From: an uncultured Ignavibacteriales bacterium
GTDB lineage: Bacteria > Zixibacteria > MSB-5A5 > GN15 > JAAZOE01
Assembly (NCBI GenBank): GCA_964611355.1
Contig: CAZSYD010000008.1
Span: 1-64,000, forward strand
DNA: 64,000 nt
Direction: 5' to 3'
Shown: in pieces, positions 45,001 to 51,000 of the stretch
Numbering within the stretch: position 1 is the first letter of the stretch
Layout: each line of letters starts with the position of its first letter
Made by a program: the position numbers

Positions 45001-48000
45001 CGAGAAAGCCGCTTCCGGGTAAGGCTATATCGTTTTATGGCCGAATCTATCCCGCTTATAAGCTCCGTGATCTGGACCTGGGGTCGTCTGGCGGCTGCGC
45101 CCGGCGAGTTTACCTTTTTCAGGAATAACAACCGGGTAGAAAATTCCCAGGCCCGGGCGGTTCTGGATGAGCTTTTTGGCCGGATCAATAAGATCAATTT
45201 TGGCCGAACCGGATACGAGGCGGATATATTGCCGCCGTTTTTCAAATCGCTGTTTCTTGACGGGGCCATCCTCGGCAGGATGAAACTTTACAATGACCTT
45301 TCCGGTATCGATAATTTCCGCTTTTTTGATCTGTCTCAGATTACCATGAAGATCTCCCCCAACGGGGATATCACCGCCGTAGTTACCAACGATGATGGAG
45401 AAACCGTTTATGTCGGGCCGGAGCTGTTTCACTATGCTCTCGACGCCAACCTCGCCAATCCTTACGGCCGTTCGATACTGAAGGCGATTCCGTTTGTTTC
45501 ATTTGTGGAGCAGCAGCTGGTTGATGATATGCGGCGCAGTACGCATAATGCCGGGTATCACCGCCTGCATGTCAGGATAAAACCGCCGGACAGGAAGGAA
45601 GGCGAAGGCGACGAGGCTTACGTCAACCGCGCCAACAGTTATTTCGACAGCACCGTATCGATGATTAAAGATATCGAGCCGGAGGATAATCCGGTTACCT
45701 GGGATGACGTTGCCATCGAATATATCGGTCCTCAGCAGCAGGGCGGGGTCAGGTCGAATAACTGGTATCTCAGTCATCGGGCCATGATAGAAGAGATATG
45801 CAGCGGGACGCACCTGGCGCCGTTTCTTCTGGGATATTCGTACAATGCCACCACCAACTGGGCGCAATTCAAGTACGATCTTGTCATGCGGCAGGTCGCC
45901 TCGGTGCAGAACGCCGCCATCAATTTCCTGAACTGGCTGGCCAATATTGAGCTGTCCCTGAAAGGATTTGACCTGACCGCTCAGTGGCGGTTTGATAATA
46001 ATTTCCCGGCCCTGGCAGGAGAGATAACGGACGTAAAAGGTAAGGAAGCTCGCCGTGTGATCGATCTTTACAACGCCGGCTTGGTTGACAGGGAAGCGGC
46101 CGCCGCCGCGGCAGCGAGGTTGGTTTAGGCACGAAAACGGGCAGTGGCCGTAAACGGAATACTTACGAGCCGGGGCGTGTAAGCTGGCGGCGGGCGCTGA
46201 AAGACCCTGTTTATTTTTCTCGAACAGTCCTGGGAATTAATCCTCACCCCGGGCAGGCCGAATGGCTGGTCAATTCCAATCGCGCGGAAAATCTTCTGGC
46301 GACCGGAAATCGCTGGGGCAAATCGTTCGTTCAGGCAATTAAAATCATTCACCGGGCGATGTTCAAAATTCGGTCGTTAAGAAACGACGGCGACGGCCGC
46401 TATAACATCGTGGCCGCCTCGATAACCCAGGATCAGGCCAACATCATCTTCAACACCGTCGTTCGTATTATCCGGCGCAATATCCTCCTGAAGGCGCTGG
46501 TCAAATCATTCAAACGGACACCTTATCCTGAAATGGTTCTTGGTAACGGGGCCGTTATTACCGCCCGGACGACGCAGAATCGAGGGCATTACCTGCTGGG
46601 CAACGATTATGATTTCTTTTCTTTCGACGAAGCGGCATTTGAGGTCGATCCGGAGTACCTGATAAACGACGTCATCATGATGCGTCTGACAGACCGAAAC
46701 GGTCGGCTTGATTTGATCTCGACGCCAAACGGTAAAAACTGGTTTTATCGTCGGATGCTGGAGCTTCAAAAAGACCCTCAGCGGGGATACGTGCAGTTTG
46801 GCGACAGTCGCGACAATCCTTATATTTCGGAGCATGCTATTGCGCTTCGCCTTAAGAACCTGCCGCCTGACCGGGTGGCGCAAAATATCGCCGGACAGTT
46901 TATTGATAACGACCGGACCATCTTCAGTACCGACGATATCGACCGGGCGATGGCCGAGCGCAGTCTTGAACCGTTCCGCGAGGGACGGCGATATATTTCC
47001 GGGTGGGATTTGGCACGCAAGCAGACTCATACGGTCGGCATGACCTTTGACGTGACCGATAAGCCGTACCGAATGGTCGCCTTTGCCCGATTCAATAACC
47101 GCGACTGGTCAGACGTGGTGTTTGCTATTCGAAAAATGCAGACCGAATACAAAAGCATGCTGGTTGTTGACGCTACCGGGCTGGGCGACGTCATTGTTTC
47201 GGAACTGGCCGATCTCAATCCGATAGGAGTCGTTTTTACGCCTCGGCAAAAGGGCGAGCTTCTCGGTAATTTGCTTCTGCTTCACAACCGTCGCGAAATC
47301 AAATACCAGGACGTTGTTCAAAATGAAGCGGGCAACCGGGTCTGGAGCCTGGAAGGGGAAATGCGTGAGATTACCTGGGACAATAACAACCGTTTTGACG
47401 CCGTAATGGCGATGGCGTTGGCGGTCTGGCCGAAACGAAGCCGGATGATTTTTCCCGGCAGCGGGCCATTGCCGGTTAAGGTATCGAGGTTGTAAAAGAA
47501 AAACCGCCGGAACAGGCGACTCTTTATTGCTTTGGATATAATAGTATTAATTGTTGCGGATGATGATATACCAAATATCAAGGAGAAAATCGTACCATTC
47601 GCTTATATTACAAGCGTCAATTATCAGGATCATCCGCCGTACACGTCGGCGAAGGTGATTCCAATAGCTATGAAGAAGACGATCCAGCCGACGATTAAGG
47701 ACCATGCGCTCTTGCGTTTTTTGTACCTGACCATATCCAGACCTTTCGTAATTCAATAATTTCCTATTCTACCTCATGAGCAACCGGTGTTCCTGAGCGT
47801 TGTTCAAAATCCGGTCTGGACAATTTGTTGCCGTTCAACCGGATAAGTTTACCTCGCAAAAAAGCCTCTTCCCTCACCGGAGGCAAAAGCCTGCAAATCG
47901 ATGCCGATATTGCGCTCAATTACCATCAATCCGGCGCAGATTCCGGAAGAGCCGGTTTATTAAAAAGGCTGGAGGAAAAATGGGTAACCTGTCGGGATGT

Positions 48001-51000
48001 CTGACTGCCAAACTGGCCGATAAGGATGAGAATTACTCAAAAAATCTGGTGGATGAAATCAATCGACGGGTAAAACCTCCTCGGCCGGTCGGGCCGGATG
48101 ACGTTTATATTCGGGCGATGTATATTGTCTCCGACCAGGTAAACGGCCAGGGGGGACGCTTTGCCGAGGAAGAACTGGACCGATTGGCCGAGCTTCTTGT
48201 CGATTCGCCGGTCATGGTCGGCCATAAACGCGACAGCCTGCCGGTGGCGCGTAATTTCAAAGCGGAAAAGGTAGTAATCGACGGCCGTACCTGGATACGA
48301 TCATATTTCTACTGGATGAAAGAAAGCGACGGCGCCGAAGATCTGAAAAACAATATCGACGGCGGTATCTACAAGGAATGTTCGATCAGTTTCCTGTTCA
48401 GGTTCCCGGAATGCTCCATCTGCGGTCAGGATATCCGGCAGTGCCGGCATATCCCTTTTCAGGAATACGAAGTTTCTCCGGGCAATAAGGAAATTGCGCA
48501 TTTCAAATATCGCCAAATTGAAAAAGTGCTGGAAACTTCGCTGGTCTTTCGCGGCTCCATTCCCGATACCCGCATTACCGACAAGTTGTCATCCACTGGA
48601 AACGATCAAAGCATAACCGAAACCGTGACCTCGGCGGCGTTATTTTCCAAGAGCGATGATGCAGCAGAACCAGGAGATCGTTCACGAAGCTTTGGAAGCG
48701 CCGTTTTGCATTTTGAGCAGTTTGAGGGTTTTCGAATTAACGAACGATCAGTCGGCCTTTTCATTTTCCCGTATCAGCCCGGGCTTGTAATCAGAGCGAG
48801 GAAAAAAGACAGCCGGGTTGAACTGGAATCGAAGCTATTGCTGCCGGAAACGGTCCGTTGTCATCTGGCTGAAGTGTTAACCGGCGTCAGGGTCGATTCG
48901 TTTATCGCCGATCTGCTGCTGTTTGCCACGCGCGGTAAAGAACGATTGAACGGTTTCGGGCTGATGCAGATAATTGAAACGGAAAAGAATCTTCATCGTC
49001 TGCGCCTGCGCTTCTGCGACCTGATTGAAGCCGATGGGCGCAATTTCATCAACGATCCCTATGAAGAAAGATTAGAGCGACTGGCGGATATTTTCGGCGA
49101 TTTAAAACTGGATAATATCGAAGTCTTGCGTCCTCGCAAGATCGGCGTCAAAGACCGTCAACCAAACCTGGATCAATCGGAAGTGAGCCGATACAGCTTT
49201 GGTCTTGAGGTAGTGGCCGAGAACGATGACGCAACCCTTAGCCGGTATATTCTCGGTCGTGACAGTCTGATTCCCGCGCATATTGAACGGATAAGCGTCA
49301 AAAGCCGGGAGCACCTCAACTGCACCGTCAGGCCAATAAGCGAAAAGGACAACCTCATCGGAATCGTATGCCCCAAAGCGGCCGGTATGGAAAAGGGAGT
49401 CATGGTACTGTTGCCTGGCGTGAAGTCTGTGGGCGGCAAACATTCGTCCGGCATAAAAATTATTGATCTTCTGCCCGGGACCGAGTCGATTGATATCGCC
49501 GCAATAACAAAGTGCGCTGACAGTAAAGGCGAGAAGCTTTACCTGGCGGAATCCGACAACCGGCTGATTCTTTGCTTCAAGTTGGACAGGCGGTGGCATA
49601 AAATAATCGTTTATCATTTTTCACAACGCCTGTTCCGGCTGGGAAGACGATTTATTGCTACTCTTGATATGGACGGAGATATCCCTGCCACGCGCTCTTC
49701 CATGCAACAAGCGCAACTGAAGTCTGTTAGTCGAACAGGCCGATTGACGCTTGTTCGATTAATGCGCGGATCATCTGTCTTTGGCGATACATCAGGATTA
49801 TGGCTGCGGCCGGTTTTGATTGACGGTCAGGAAAGATTTCTTTTTTACGCGGACGGCGTTACTCGTCATCAAGAAGGATTATGAGCCGCCGGCTGCCTCC
49901 GCCCCGGGAGAGGAGCTTGACCAGTCCGACGTTGTCGGCATAATACTCATCGACGACCATCATTGTGTCGGGACTGGTTTCATTGAAAAAAAGACAGGAT
50001 TTGAAATAGTACGATTCGTAGGAATTGGTGGGCAGGACGATGTCGATTTTTCCCTCGAACGTCCGCTGCGTCAGGTAACCGTAATTAAGAAACAGCAGCG
50101 CGCTTTTCTCATCGTACTGCGGCGATATGACCGACCATGAGCTGCCGATAGCGTATTCGCGAGGCATGATGATCGGCGTGGGAGTATAGAAAAGAGTTTC
50201 CGGAGGGTTAACGTCATAACGGATCAGGCCGGTGTGCAGAACGCCCAGCGGATCGACGGTCAAAACGTCATGGGGAGTTCCGTCAACAGTCAGTTCGACC
50301 TGATTACCTTCGCCTTCGGTTATTTCAAGCGACAGGTCGGTAGTGTCAATTGTAACCGAGTAATCGGGGATATAGGTGACGATGCTGTCATAAATAACAT
50401 AGTGCAGGGTATGGTTCCGTTTCAGACCCAGCAGGTCGGCGCTATCAGGATAATCGACCACCGGAGGAGATTCGGAGGATTTGTCGCATCCGACCGCGAC
50501 AAAGATCATAATCAGAAATATGGCAATAGTAATCCTATACATGACCTGTATCCTTTCACCGCAGTAAAATCGTTTTCAATAGGTTTGGTCAATATAAAAA
50601 AGGAGGAACAACATTGAATAAATGGCGACAACTGGCGCCCAGGGTTCATTCGTTTCATACCGTATTGATGATTATAATTACCTTGGGTTATCTCCTGGCG
50701 ACGCATCTTTCCACGATCAGCAGCCTCAAGGCGGCCATCGCAGGTAAGGCGGACCGGTCGGAACTGGAACATCTCGACAAAAAACTAACAAGAATTGAGG
50801 TGAAGCTGGAGGAGGCGGTTATTACAAAGAATGAATTCAACCGCCTGCGCGAACATCTTGACCGGACCATAATGGAAGTCGCTCTCAGGTTTGAAGGCGG
50901 AAGAGAAAGGGACGCCGAACATGGAAAATAAACTGCAGGAACTGGATCGGGCTTTGTGCGAATTCATTGCGATTCTTGATAATGACTCAGGGACAGATTC

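Follow-up and report, generated by a model that had tools for sequence, protein, structure and literature searches.

Gene cluster and domain layout

What does a DNA-ligase-like module do in a protein encoded among phage head genes? The window (the whole 64,000-nucleotide stretch analysed here) carries such a gene between terminase and capsid genes, and a first-pass annotation had proposed that its product joins a prohead protease, a ligase-like part and a LigD 3'-phosphoesterase (PE)-like barrel. The gene is a single continuous ORF of 634 aa with an ATG at 47980 and a stop codon at 49882-49884; upstream of the ATG, the open frame extends to a TTG at 47800. The cluster includes two small coiled-coil ORFs (50614-50931 and 50891-51367) and the following features.

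44857..46128, +, portal protein (phrog_3753, E 7e-18)
46359..47495, +, large terminase, 378 aa (phrog_2, E 2.6e-29; PF03237)
47980..49884, +, whole fusion gene, 634 aa plus stop codon: protease, ligase-like part and PE-like part, the last two predicted to be catalytically dead
47980..48552, +, S78/HK97-type prohead serine protease domain, residues 1-191
48223..48225, +, codon for the presumed catalytic His, H82
48382..48384, +, codon for the presumed catalytic Ser, S135
48412..48450, +, CxxC...CxH motif inside the protease domain, residues C145-H157
48553..48699, +, linker of variable length, residues 192-240
48700..49269, +, degenerate nucleotidyltransferase (NTase, adenylation) domain of an ATP-dependent DNA ligase, residues 241-430
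48769..48783, +, motif I remnant P-Y-Q-P-G, residues 264-268 (P-K-Y-D-G in intact orthologs)
49270..49515, +, OB-fold-like domain, residues 431-512
49516..49881, +, degenerate LigD PE barrel, residues 513-634
51442..51864, +, head decoration-like protein (phrog_4588, E 5.7e-8)
51883..52989, +, major capsid protein (phrog_3922, E 1.4e-64)

A new AF2 run for the whole protein, using a 36-sequence alignment, gave a mean pLDDT of 78.4, with values <50 in residues 1-7, 191-233, 483-488, 510-516 and 628-634. Searching this model against 48,161 PDB chains reproduced the earlier Z values, in support of the three-part architecture. Across relatives, the linker comprises 11-40 aligned residues.

We identified 288 homologs of the fusion protein at E <= 0.001. 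The gene occurs in 268 of the 285 genomes of Zixibacteria (phylum membership taken from record titles) and in 194 of the 198 high-quality genomes. Its setting is always a syntenic portal-terminase-capsid cluster, and the major capsid protein shares 60-82% identity over 55 loci.

The protease domain

The protease part of the model matches T4 gp21 (5jbl_A, Z 10.7, 149 aligned) and a BFVD entry named "Prohead serine protease" (E 1e-12, TMt 0.69). The domain is linked by tblastn to phage head maturation proteases, and by hhalign to the protease of Brevibacillus phage Jenst (97.8%). In the Pfam search the 634-aa protein itself falls below the PF04586 model, which is passed by one linked phage protease (23.7 bits, cut-off 21) and by one fusion relative (36.6 bits).

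H82, S135, C145, C148 and C155, previously reported as invariant in 21 of 21 sequences, are each present in all 72 aligned rows, as are H157 and E185. The presumed catalytic pair, H82 and S135, is also invariant in the comparison with two phage proteases. The Cys3His motif C145-H157 is a probable zinc site, and the same motif is found in the proteases of Flavonifractor phage Cormatin and phage Jenst. The domain has a dN/dS of 0.01-0.20. Residues 1-191 probably form a working prohead (capsid-maturation) serine protease.

A degenerate LigD-like module

The central part is matched by DNA ligases at Z 14.5-11.2 (2hiv_A: Z 14.2, 183 aligned, rmsd 3.0), and these matches extend through residue ~510 (3gde_A, 226-510), spanning the OB part. 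When the profile of alignment A6 was compared with the PDB, 31 of the 33 matches were DNA ligases (best E 1.7e-7). Foldseek gave a match at E 1.8e-8, hhalign against three true LigD ligases gave 94.1%, and PF01068 was above cut-off in two degenerate homologs. Sequence profiles and fold together support the assignment of residues ~241-512 to an ATP-dependent DNA-ligase NTase and OB module.

The first-pass annotation had considered this part probably not a ligase, and this is supported: each of motifs I, III, IIIa, IV and V has been replaced. Relative to an intact ortholog, K and D of motif I are Y265 and P267, E of motif III is L313, F of motif IIIa is C346, E/K of motif IV are F407/V412 and K/K of motif V are L425/R427. 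Over the 72 rows, the motif-I lysine position holds Ala (25), Tyr (15), Arg (8), His (7), Phe (4), a gap (4), Asn, Ser or Lys (2 each) and Glu, Asp or Leu (1 each), and no lysine anywhere in the module is invariant among the aligned relatives. The RGKER loop is strongly conserved: G319 and R322 are invariant over 67 rows, and K320 is kept in 53 of them (Arg in 12). The OB domain is absent from 32 of 72 forms, and NTase and OB are both absent from five of 72; the latter are short forms of 363-412 aa. Some lineages have shed NTase and OB yet still carry the cluster, so these two parts cannot be essential. No Ku gene was detected in this genome or in five genomes with intact fusions, which places the module outside the normal cellular NHEJ set.

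For the C-terminal barrel, the whole-protein model matches the LigD PE 3p4h_A at Z 9.2 (99 aligned). Folded alone from 60 sequences (pLDDT 89.6), the domain matches only two of the 48,161 chains at Z >= 5, both of them LigD PE structures (3p4h_A, Z 9.4; 3n9b_A, Z 8.5), and the next match is at 4.5. Its sequence has no match in the PDB at E <= 10, the best Foldseek E is 0.021, and direct hhalign with true LigD_N is not significant (9.7% over 19 columns). The barrel is linked to the intact PE of orthologs (hhalign, 99.0%), and these to true LigD_N (89.2%). The probable PE ancestry of residues 513-634 thus rests on fold and intermediate sequences. The metal and phosphate ligands of PE and a 24-residue loop are lost in the 634-aa protein, and the PE part is predicted to be catalytically dead. 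With the catalytic residues of both ligase and PE replaced, the module would be a pseudoenzyme. The barrel is retained in 72 of 72 rows, as the only partner of the protease that is never lost. Conserved arginines of the module lie in GRRF, LRP and R.LFY motifs. Net charge is modest and variable, with means of +3.8 for the PE-like part (range -5 to +10), +1.4 for the NTase-like part and -2.7 for OB.

Purifying selection acts on all parts of the fusion: over 19 pairs, dN/dS is 0.12-0.32 for the NTase-like part, 0.27-0.65 for OB and 0.10-0.47 for the PE-like part. Only two of 150 among the matches listed across the phylum have a stop codon inside the frame. Identity among relatives is 12-40% in the LigD-like module versus 55-79% in the protease domain.

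Intact orthologs and viral relatives

In two of 20 families, the only ones in which intact forms were seen, orthologs in the same syntenic cluster score 68-120 bits with PF01068 (19 of 20 genomes in one family, 4 of 4 in the other). Most of the 23 loci read in these families keep the ligase motifs, and in one family the LigD-PE motifs (His/Asp/Arg) are retained too; such intact motifs are in themselves no proof of activity. The earlier statement that no lysine occupies motif I in 19 of 19 homologs therefore holds for the lineage of the window but not family-wide, since EPKYDG is complete in 19 of the 22 orthologs examined in the two families. Nor is the fusion confined to the lysine-less form: both these orthologs and viral relatives keep the ligase motifs, often together with those of PE. 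By parsimony rather than from a rooted tree, the lysine-less state is probably derived (intact first, dead later).

On IMG/VR viral contigs, protease-ligase(-PE) fusions adjoin capsid genes. P0364 and viral contigs L127, L132 and L134 combine a phrog_16951 protease with a ligase, and the L134 fusion adjoins a phrog_3922 capsid gene. P0354 has the reverse order and a different protease family, joining ligase and LigD_N to a DUF2213/phrog_530 head maturation protease with a coiled-coil tail. In ANMV-1 virus, the portal gene is followed by a Lig-PE gene. The coupling of Lig-PE to head proteases appears to have arisen repeatedly and independently. Our literature search found no paper on a capsid protease-LigD-like fusion, as the first-pass annotation had supposed; some intact orthologs (690-800 aa) are already named "ATP-dependent DNA ligase" in public NCBI records. 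New here are the phylum-wide spread, the intact orthologs and the fusions on viral contigs.

Possible role of the module

We favour, with moderate confidence, the reading that the protein is a protease with a pseudoenzyme extension, derived from a LigD-like end-repair module and kept as a binding part in the head. The ancestor would have been a phage "protease + LigD-like" head protein, in which the procapsid-embedded protease would have carried into the head an enzyme that heals and seals ends; there the enzyme would sit with the packaged DNA and probably exit with it. In the lineage of the window, the chemistry would have gone and the module persisted as a non-catalytic binding part, with the PE-like barrel as its indispensable piece and NTase and OB as accessories. 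Entry of the module into the head, and its binding to DNA or capsid once there, are inferred; because of its ancestry, we lean slightly towards DNA (ends or nicks) rather than the inner capsid wall as its current partner. Relatives with a working-looking enzyme suggest that certain phages may pack a DNA-joining kit of their own into the head.

The module might instead serve in scaffolding or capsid targeting, with its DNA role gone: having replaced the scaffolding or capsid-docking extension at the C terminus of related phage proteases, it would bind the inner face of the capsid protein, aid assembly, and be cleaved and degraded on maturation. In phage proteases of the Cys3His type, the corresponding position is occupied by a long C-terminal extension that is helical and coiled-coil (JENST_24 of Brevibacillus phage Jenst, 490 aa; the protease of Enterococcus phage fHoEfm07, 378 aa), and a helical scaffold there in true phages favours a structural reading of whatever occupies that position. 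The module also evolves fast, as scaffolds do, its C-terminal barrel alone is always retained, and the conserved arginines could equally touch an acidic capsid interior. However, it folds as a globular, beta-rich enzyme and differs in this from known scaffolds, the cluster's own coiled-coil ORFs could be the scaffold, and in P0354 Lig-PE occurs besides a protease and coiled-coil tail, and is thus an extra. We regard this explanation as rather unlikely, if a serious one. An improbable alternative is that the protease cuts the linker before or without assembly, so that the module acts in the producing cell, for example at the ends that terminase creates in host or concatemer DNA, or in regulating the protease. 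Prohead proteases are known to autoprocess, and a variable-length linker modelled as disordered separates the domains, but head-protease fusions recur in both orders, and operon linkage would suffice if co-localisation in the head were not needed.

Loss of catalysis and the deletion of module parts in some lineages could also mean that a needed protease is dragging along 400 C-terminal residues as decaying ballast. This is very unlikely, given dN/dS well below 1 in every part, a frame open across the phylum, and a PE-like barrel that is kept in every aligned row and confidently modelled. We give still less credence to a surviving enzyme in which relocated residues, such as K320 of the RGKER loop, ligate or process nucleic acid. 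The conservation of this loop and of several arginines would fit, but the Arg found at K320 in some rows cannot be adenylated, the ligase motifs and PE ligands are gone, and in intact orthologs the corresponding K-G-K/N-S-R loop coexists with a normal motif I and hence does not stand in for it.

Comparison with known systems

HK97-type (Peptidase_S78) proteases, including JENST_24 and fHoEfm07, resemble the 634-aa protein in fold, invariant His and Ser, Cys3His insert, gene position, with portal/terminase on one side and a phrog_3922-type capsid gene on the other, and a long C-terminal extension beyond a linker. In the two phage proteins this extension is a helical scaffold, whereas here it is a globular, predicted-dead LigD-like module. 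LigD of bacteria and archaea (PDB 1vs0, 6nhx, 3n9b, 3p4h) likewise has an NTase and OB fold and a PE barrel on one polypeptide, the ligase part being homologous at profile level and PE probably through intermediate sequences. Unlike LigD, the 634-aa protein lacks the catalytic residues and a polymerase domain, is fused to a capsid protease and occurs in a genome without Ku; its order is Lig then PE, in contrast to PE then Lig in the phylum's cellular genes.

The two-family orthologs share protease domain, synteny and domain order, and differ in keeping motifs III, IIIa, IV and V besides motif I. The 866-aa "ATP-dependent DNA ligase" of ANMV-1 virus and the IMG/VR ORFs share the Lig-then-PE order and the head-gene module, and in L127, L132 and L134 the ligase is fused to the same protease type. 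These proteins have intact catalytic motifs and occur in viruses, whereas the 634-aa fusion belongs to a chromosomal, phylum-wide cluster; the ANMV-1 protein, moreover, has no recognisable protease domain.

Phage heads carry proteins that are delivered with the DNA, such as T4 internal proteins, the gp2 end-protector and MuF-family fusions. These share with the 634-aa fusion the idea of a head-assembly component that brings an accessory protein into the capsid, without homology; LigD-type cargo loaded by a maturation-protease fusion was not found in the literature searched. The m3G-cap-binding domain of Snurportin-1 (1xk5; fold match Z 10.7, 155 aligned) is eukaryotic and of capping-enzyme descent. 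The likeness is one of principle only: an NTase fold without its catalytic lysine, reused for binding, which in the 634-aa protein is putative.

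A fusion gene within a conserved row of head genes

The fusion gene is a single open frame of 634 codons (window 47980-49884, + strand), and the frame upstream is open back to a TTG at 47800. Its position is that of a head-module gene, between the portal and terminase genes and the major capsid gene.

Head genes and a neighbouring ORF in the window
44857-46128, + strand, portal (phrog_3753, E 7e-18)
46359-47495, + strand, large terminase (phrog_2, E 2.6e-29)
47980-49884, + strand, fusion gene, 3' of the terminase and followed by small ORFs
49859-50542, - strand, 227-aa ORF whose hydrophobic stretch followed by Cys resembles a lipoprotein signal
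51442-51864, + strand, decoration-like gene of the head-gene row
51883-52989, + strand, major capsid gene (phrog_3922, E 1.4e-64)

Synteny of the entire head-gene row (window 43406-61358) extends over about 60 loci of the phylum. The recurring order is a PEP-CTERM gene (- strand), portal, terminase, fusion gene, orf105 (small ORFs), decoration gene and capsid gene, continued by genes that we label g479, g270, g124, g85, g272, g661 and g730 (- strand). Genes 3' of the capsid gene could not be placed clearly in any family, and nothing seen in the row at 43406-61358 has the size of a tape-measure gene. Capsid proteins from 55 loci are 60-82% identical. The cluster is a vertically kept, phage-derived one rather than a roaming prophage.

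A word-indexed search returned 288 homologs of the fusion protein (E <= 0.001), and all source-given names are Zixibacteria. The gene occurs in 268 of the 285 genomes of the phylum, in 194/198 high-quality genomes and in 124/130 genera. We rejected a misassembled or chimeric ORF, as the identical architecture is found in hundreds of independent assemblies.

Some further features of the region were noted. At 378 aa, the large terminase is short, and its phrog_2 match spans only positions 307-596 of the 807-position profile. The terminase and fusion genes are separated by 484 nt (47496-47979), a gap kept at ~350-470 nt in related loci, and an Rfam scan of window 43000-60000, this gap included, gave no match. 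A 20-nt direct repeat (90% identical) occurs at the terminase start (46356-46375) and 183 nt upstream of the fusion gene ATG (47797-47816), with a third, partial copy within the terminase gene (47309-47324). It makes the first six residues identical in both frames, and may reflect chance or a common control site. The 227-aa minus-strand ORF converges on the fusion gene, with an overlap of 26 nt at the end of that gene, and was detected by tblastn in 18/83 loci.

Three parts in one protein

The protein was folded on an alignment of 36 sequences, taken from 120 homologs listed and mostly full-length (~590-670 aa). The model has a mean pLDDT of 78.4, with residues 191-233 below 50. Compared with 48,161 PDB chains, residues 1-194 matched the T4 prohead protease gp21 (5jbl_A, Z 10.7, 149 aligned of 165), and residues 517-634 matched the LigD phosphoesterases 3p4h_A (Z 9.2) and 3n9b_A (Z 8.2). 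Between them, 13 DNA-ligase entries were found at Z 14.5-11.2, including 2hiv_A (Z 14.2, 183 aligned, rmsd 3.0) and 3gde_A, whose match covers residues 226-510. Foldseek likewise returned ligases at E 1.8e-8 and below. The Z values for the ligases, 5jbl_A and 3p4h_A are close to those on which the first-pass annotation had based its protease, ligase and phosphoesterase folds, and these assignments stand. Residues 241-634 are modelled mostly as beta strands in three globular domains, and the long helical coiled-coil C-terminal extension of a phage scaffolding domain is absent from the model. Among viral folds, the full model is closest to BFVD A0A516LT18 (827 aa, 589 aligned columns, E 6e-14), which may be another viral protease-ligase fusion.

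An intact-looking prohead protease

The N-terminal domain has the prohead-protease (herpesvirus-assemblin-like) fold, as indicated by 5jbl_A and by a BFVD match to a "Prohead serine protease" (E 1e-12, TMt 0.69, rmsd 3.0). The window protein alone had no match in Pfam, it and 36 homologs had no PF04586 match at E <= 1, and a profile of the protease domain found a single unrelated match (E 0.4) among PDB sequences. Assignment to the S78 proteases therefore rests on the fold, on linked relatives, on conserved residues and on gene position. Of 50,697 phage records searched by tblastn with residues 1-207, 10 matched. These include the "major head and protease protein" of Flavonifractor phage Cormatin and the "head maturation protease" of Enterococcus phage fHoEfm07, which passes Peptidase_S78 at 23.7 bits (cut-off 21) and whose capsid gene is likewise phrog_3922. 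JENST_24 of Brevibacillus phage Jenst aligns to the window-protein alignment over the N-terminal domain only (hhalign 97.8%), and a fusion relative, P0353, passes PF04586 at 36.6 bits (cut-off 21).

We aligned the window protein with those from 71 of 83 loci (72 rows), excluding seven ORFs cut by contig ends, two with masked bases, one broken ORF and two phage loci. H82, S135, E185 and C145/C148/C155/H157 are invariant in 72/72 rows. H82 and S135, which we take to be the catalytic His and Ser of the prohead serine protease active site, are also invariant in an alignment with two phage proteases. The protease looks intact.

A ligase-like part without ligase motifs

The central part combines a nucleotidyltransferase (NTase) fold with a following OB fold, as found by both the PDB fold search and Foldseek. 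A single-sequence search of PDB sequences with the window protein found nothing, whereas the whole-protein profile matched 22, every one a DNA ligase (best E 2.7e-6). From 31 of 66 central domains (the OB-containing long forms) we built a second profile, which gave 33 matches, 31 of them ligases (best E 1.7e-7). This profile homology, together with hhalign to three true LigD-type ligases of the phylum (94.1%, E 1.3e-7, 135 columns) and weak PF01068 matches in 9/36 homologs, shows that the likeness to ATP-dependent DNA ligases goes beyond fold resemblance.

In all profile and hhalign alignments, Y265 occupies the position of the motif I lysine (KxDG, the adenylation site), and P267 that of its Asp. 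Against the intact ortholog L060, the remaining motifs are also substituted: III (E to L313), IIIa (F to C346), IV (E to F407, K to V412) and V (K to L425, K to R427). The first-pass view that the protein is probably not a ligase is thus strengthened. A relocated catalytic lysine was considered and rejected, as K320 in the RGKER loop is Arg in 12/67 rows. This loop is the K-G-K/N-S-R loop of the intact forms and no new active site.

A degenerate LigD phosphoesterase barrel

For a separate model of the C-terminal domain (pLDDT 89.6), we used 60 of the 72 sequences, with near-duplicates dropped by hand. Among the 48,161 PDB chains, the two LigD phosphoesterases 3p4h_A (Z 9.4, 99/118 aligned) and 3n9b_A (Z 8.5) are the only ones at Z >= 5, the third best being 4.5. 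The top Foldseek match is 3p43, an archaeal LigD phosphoesterase (PE), at probability 1.00 but E 0.021. The domain thus has the PE beta-barrel fold. Its profile found no PDB sequence at E <= 10, PF13298 has no match in the window's genome, and direct hhalign of the degenerate profile with five true LigD_N domains was not significant (9.7%, 19 columns). The LigD link runs in two steps. The degenerate barrels align with the intact PE of fusion orthologs (hhalign 99.0%, E 2e-18, 101 columns), with a 24-residue gap at the DYH..FEG loop of the intact forms, and the intact fusion PE aligns with true LigD_N (89.2%, E 2e-6, 95 columns). From these profile alignments, we infer that the barrel descends from a LigD PE and is now degenerate.

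The active-site His, His, Asp, Arg, His and Tyr are invariant in the five true LigD_N of the phylum and are missing from the window protein, where R528-L529-I530-L531-C532 aligns with the HHDLR of PE and the DYH..FEG loop is deleted. In the 60-barrel alignment, His occurs in at most 10 rows of any column. A profile search for stand-alone barrels among 1.84 billion representatives found 177 proteins at E <= 0.001. Among the 150 matches listed, the barrel is the C-terminal end of fusion-length proteins or fragments, and the six short matches that we read all have NTase-like sequence upstream. A 1201-aa tandem-repeat protein in this search was a spurious match. A complex prediction for the capsid protein (43 rows) and the barrel (60 rows) scored 0.01 (mark 0.32) and is evidence neither way.

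The barrel is present in 72/72 rows, in three architectures. For dN/dS, we used 19 pairs at 70-97% identity.

Architectures among the 72 rows, and dN/dS by part
Protease + NTase + OB + PE: 35/72
Protease + NTase + PE, no OB: 32/72
Protease + PE only (363-412 aa): 5/72
dN/dS, protease: 0.01-0.20
dN/dS, NTase-like: 0.12-0.32 (in three pairs of protease + PE-only forms, these columns are linker residues)
dN/dS, OB: 0.27-0.65
dN/dS, PE-like: 0.10-0.47

Intact orthologs in two families

The ESM Atlas provided a lead to a 762-aa Zixibacteria cluster with PF01068 in 58/58 members (score 0.78). L060 (742 aa) and ten more loci, from genomes of two families, encode the same protease followed by the ligase motifs EPKYDG, DGE, FD(I/L)LY, EG.(M/L)(I/L)K and W.KWK. 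In one of the two families, the protein continues with Q.H, H.D.R, D.H and FEG.IP, the LigD-PE signature. PF01068 scored 89-116 bits in 5/5 intact fusion proteins scanned. Across the 285 genomes, it was found inside fusion ORFs of 643-808 aa in 19/20 genomes of family f16 and 4/4 of f17, and PF13298 was detected below threshold inside seven fusion ORFs (E 3e-5 to 8e-4). The motif I region is present in 22 of the 23 loci examined, with Lys in 19, Arg in two and Glu in one. The missing lysine reported by the first-pass annotation thus holds for the window protein (Y265) but not for 19/22 orthologs from two other families. Synteny was checked in two genomes with intact fusions: both share the decoration gene, capsid gene, g479 and g270, and one also shares the portal, terminase, g124 and g661.

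Relatives in viruses

Residues 238-634 of the window protein had no tblastn match at E <= 1 in the 50,697 phage records. The ligase-PE (Lig-PE) part of an intact ortholog matched 56 phage records, with ANMV-1 virus far ahead of the others (93% cover, E 1e-19). Its 866-aa "ATP-dependent DNA ligase" is encoded directly 3' of a CDS at 1913-3193 (KP703175) that is annotated as a "MutT-like phage hydrolase" and matches Phage_portal_3 (PF06381, E 3e-22), so in this archaeal virus the Lig-PE gene adjoins a portal gene.

The same query gave 370 matches in the protein collection. About 108 proteins are 49-100% identical to it, with all source-given names Zixibacteria, and further relatives (P0354, P0364 and P0361, the last named Candidatus Methanoperedens) are 34-39% identical. 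P0364 comprises a phrog_16951 protease, ligase and LigD_N. P0354 has ligase, LigD_N, a DUF2213/phrog_530 "head maturation protease" (E 8e-28) and a coiled-coil tail; compared with the window fusion, the domain order is reversed and the protease belongs to another family. In these outside-phylum relatives, a segment "GG..(E/N)(K/G)..(S/T)..D(I/V)D" adjoins Lig-PE (at ~20-40 in P0354, ~700-720 in P0364 and ~55-75 in the ANMV-1 protein) and appears to resemble Pol-beta-type nucleotidyltransferases.

Exact-pattern scans of IMG/VR with P0354 alone and with P0364 alone found nothing, and a scan with an alignment of the outside-phylum relatives found 27 loci. In five of these, ORFs were scanned against PHROGs. 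L132 (1011 aa), L127 and L134 have a phrog_16951 protease and ligase within one ORF. In L130 (1229 aa), that scan found only the ligase family; a tblastn search adds a weak similarity to the protease domain of the window protein (32% over 141 aa, E 4e-13). Capsid genes come next in two contigs: one of phrog_3922 (E 2e-77) after the L134 fusion, and one of phrog_212 after the L128 ligase ORF, which lacks its 5' end at the contig boundary. The portal, protease and capsid proteins of the viral contigs share 24-42% identity with those of the window. The fusion therefore belongs to a phage lineage and is older than its domestication.

Possible role of the module

The dead Lig-PE module is of LigD ancestry, all parts of the protein are under selection, and retention in the phylum is near-universal. 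More likely than not, the protease carries the Lig-PE module into the procapsid, the intact form acts on packaged or delivered DNA, and the dead form retains a binding role. With considerable doubt, we further propose that a lineage of tailed phages, and the phage-derived particle of nearly all members of the phylum, use protease fusion to bring a LigD-type end-healing and end-sealing kit into the capsid. The enzyme would then accompany the DNA and, with no need of Ku, join or circularise it in the recipient; across most of the phylum, what is left would be a dead protein gripping the ends of the packaged DNA. The head is favoured as the site of action mainly because fusion to head proteases is repeated and independent of order; both domain orders and two protease families are a strong comparative hint that heads of some phages are pre-loaded with ligase/phosphoesterase.

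Prohead proteases are known to carry scaffolds, and the main rival explanation is that the Lig-PE-like module is purely structural. It keeps that standing because related phage proteases have a helical scaffold in the same place: the Jenst protease has a helical coiled-coil C-terminal extension where the window protein has mostly-beta globular domains. P0354, however, carries both a coiled-coil tail and Lig-PE, which argues for Lig-PE as cargo rather than scaffold.

Our literature searches, which covered work outside subscription journals, turned up nothing on a protease fused to a ligase or to LigD, in line with the first-pass remark that such a fusion is not described, nothing on a DNA-repair enzyme as prohead-protease cargo, and nothing on a Zixibacteria capsid cluster or gene transfer agent. 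Term checks of PMC4889955 and PMC7824862 likewise gave no mention of such a fusion. If true, the proposal would explain in a new way the survival of linear phage or transferred DNA and its closure after arrival. Within one conserved chromosomal cluster, members of the family range from the intact enzyme through the pseudoenzyme to partly deleted forms, a natural series on which the question can be tested, and the gene is an added marker for an undescribed phylum-wide phage-derived particle cluster.

Compared with cellular NHEJ, the Ku partner is missing: PF02735 was found neither in the window's genome (96% complete) nor in five genomes with intact fusions. Cellular LigD-type genes are rare in the phylum (PF13298 in 32/285 genomes, seven of those inside fusion ORFs). 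Where they occur in genomes G042, G043 and G005 (loci L087-L091), PE precedes ligase in adjacent frames, whereas the order in the fusion is the opposite.
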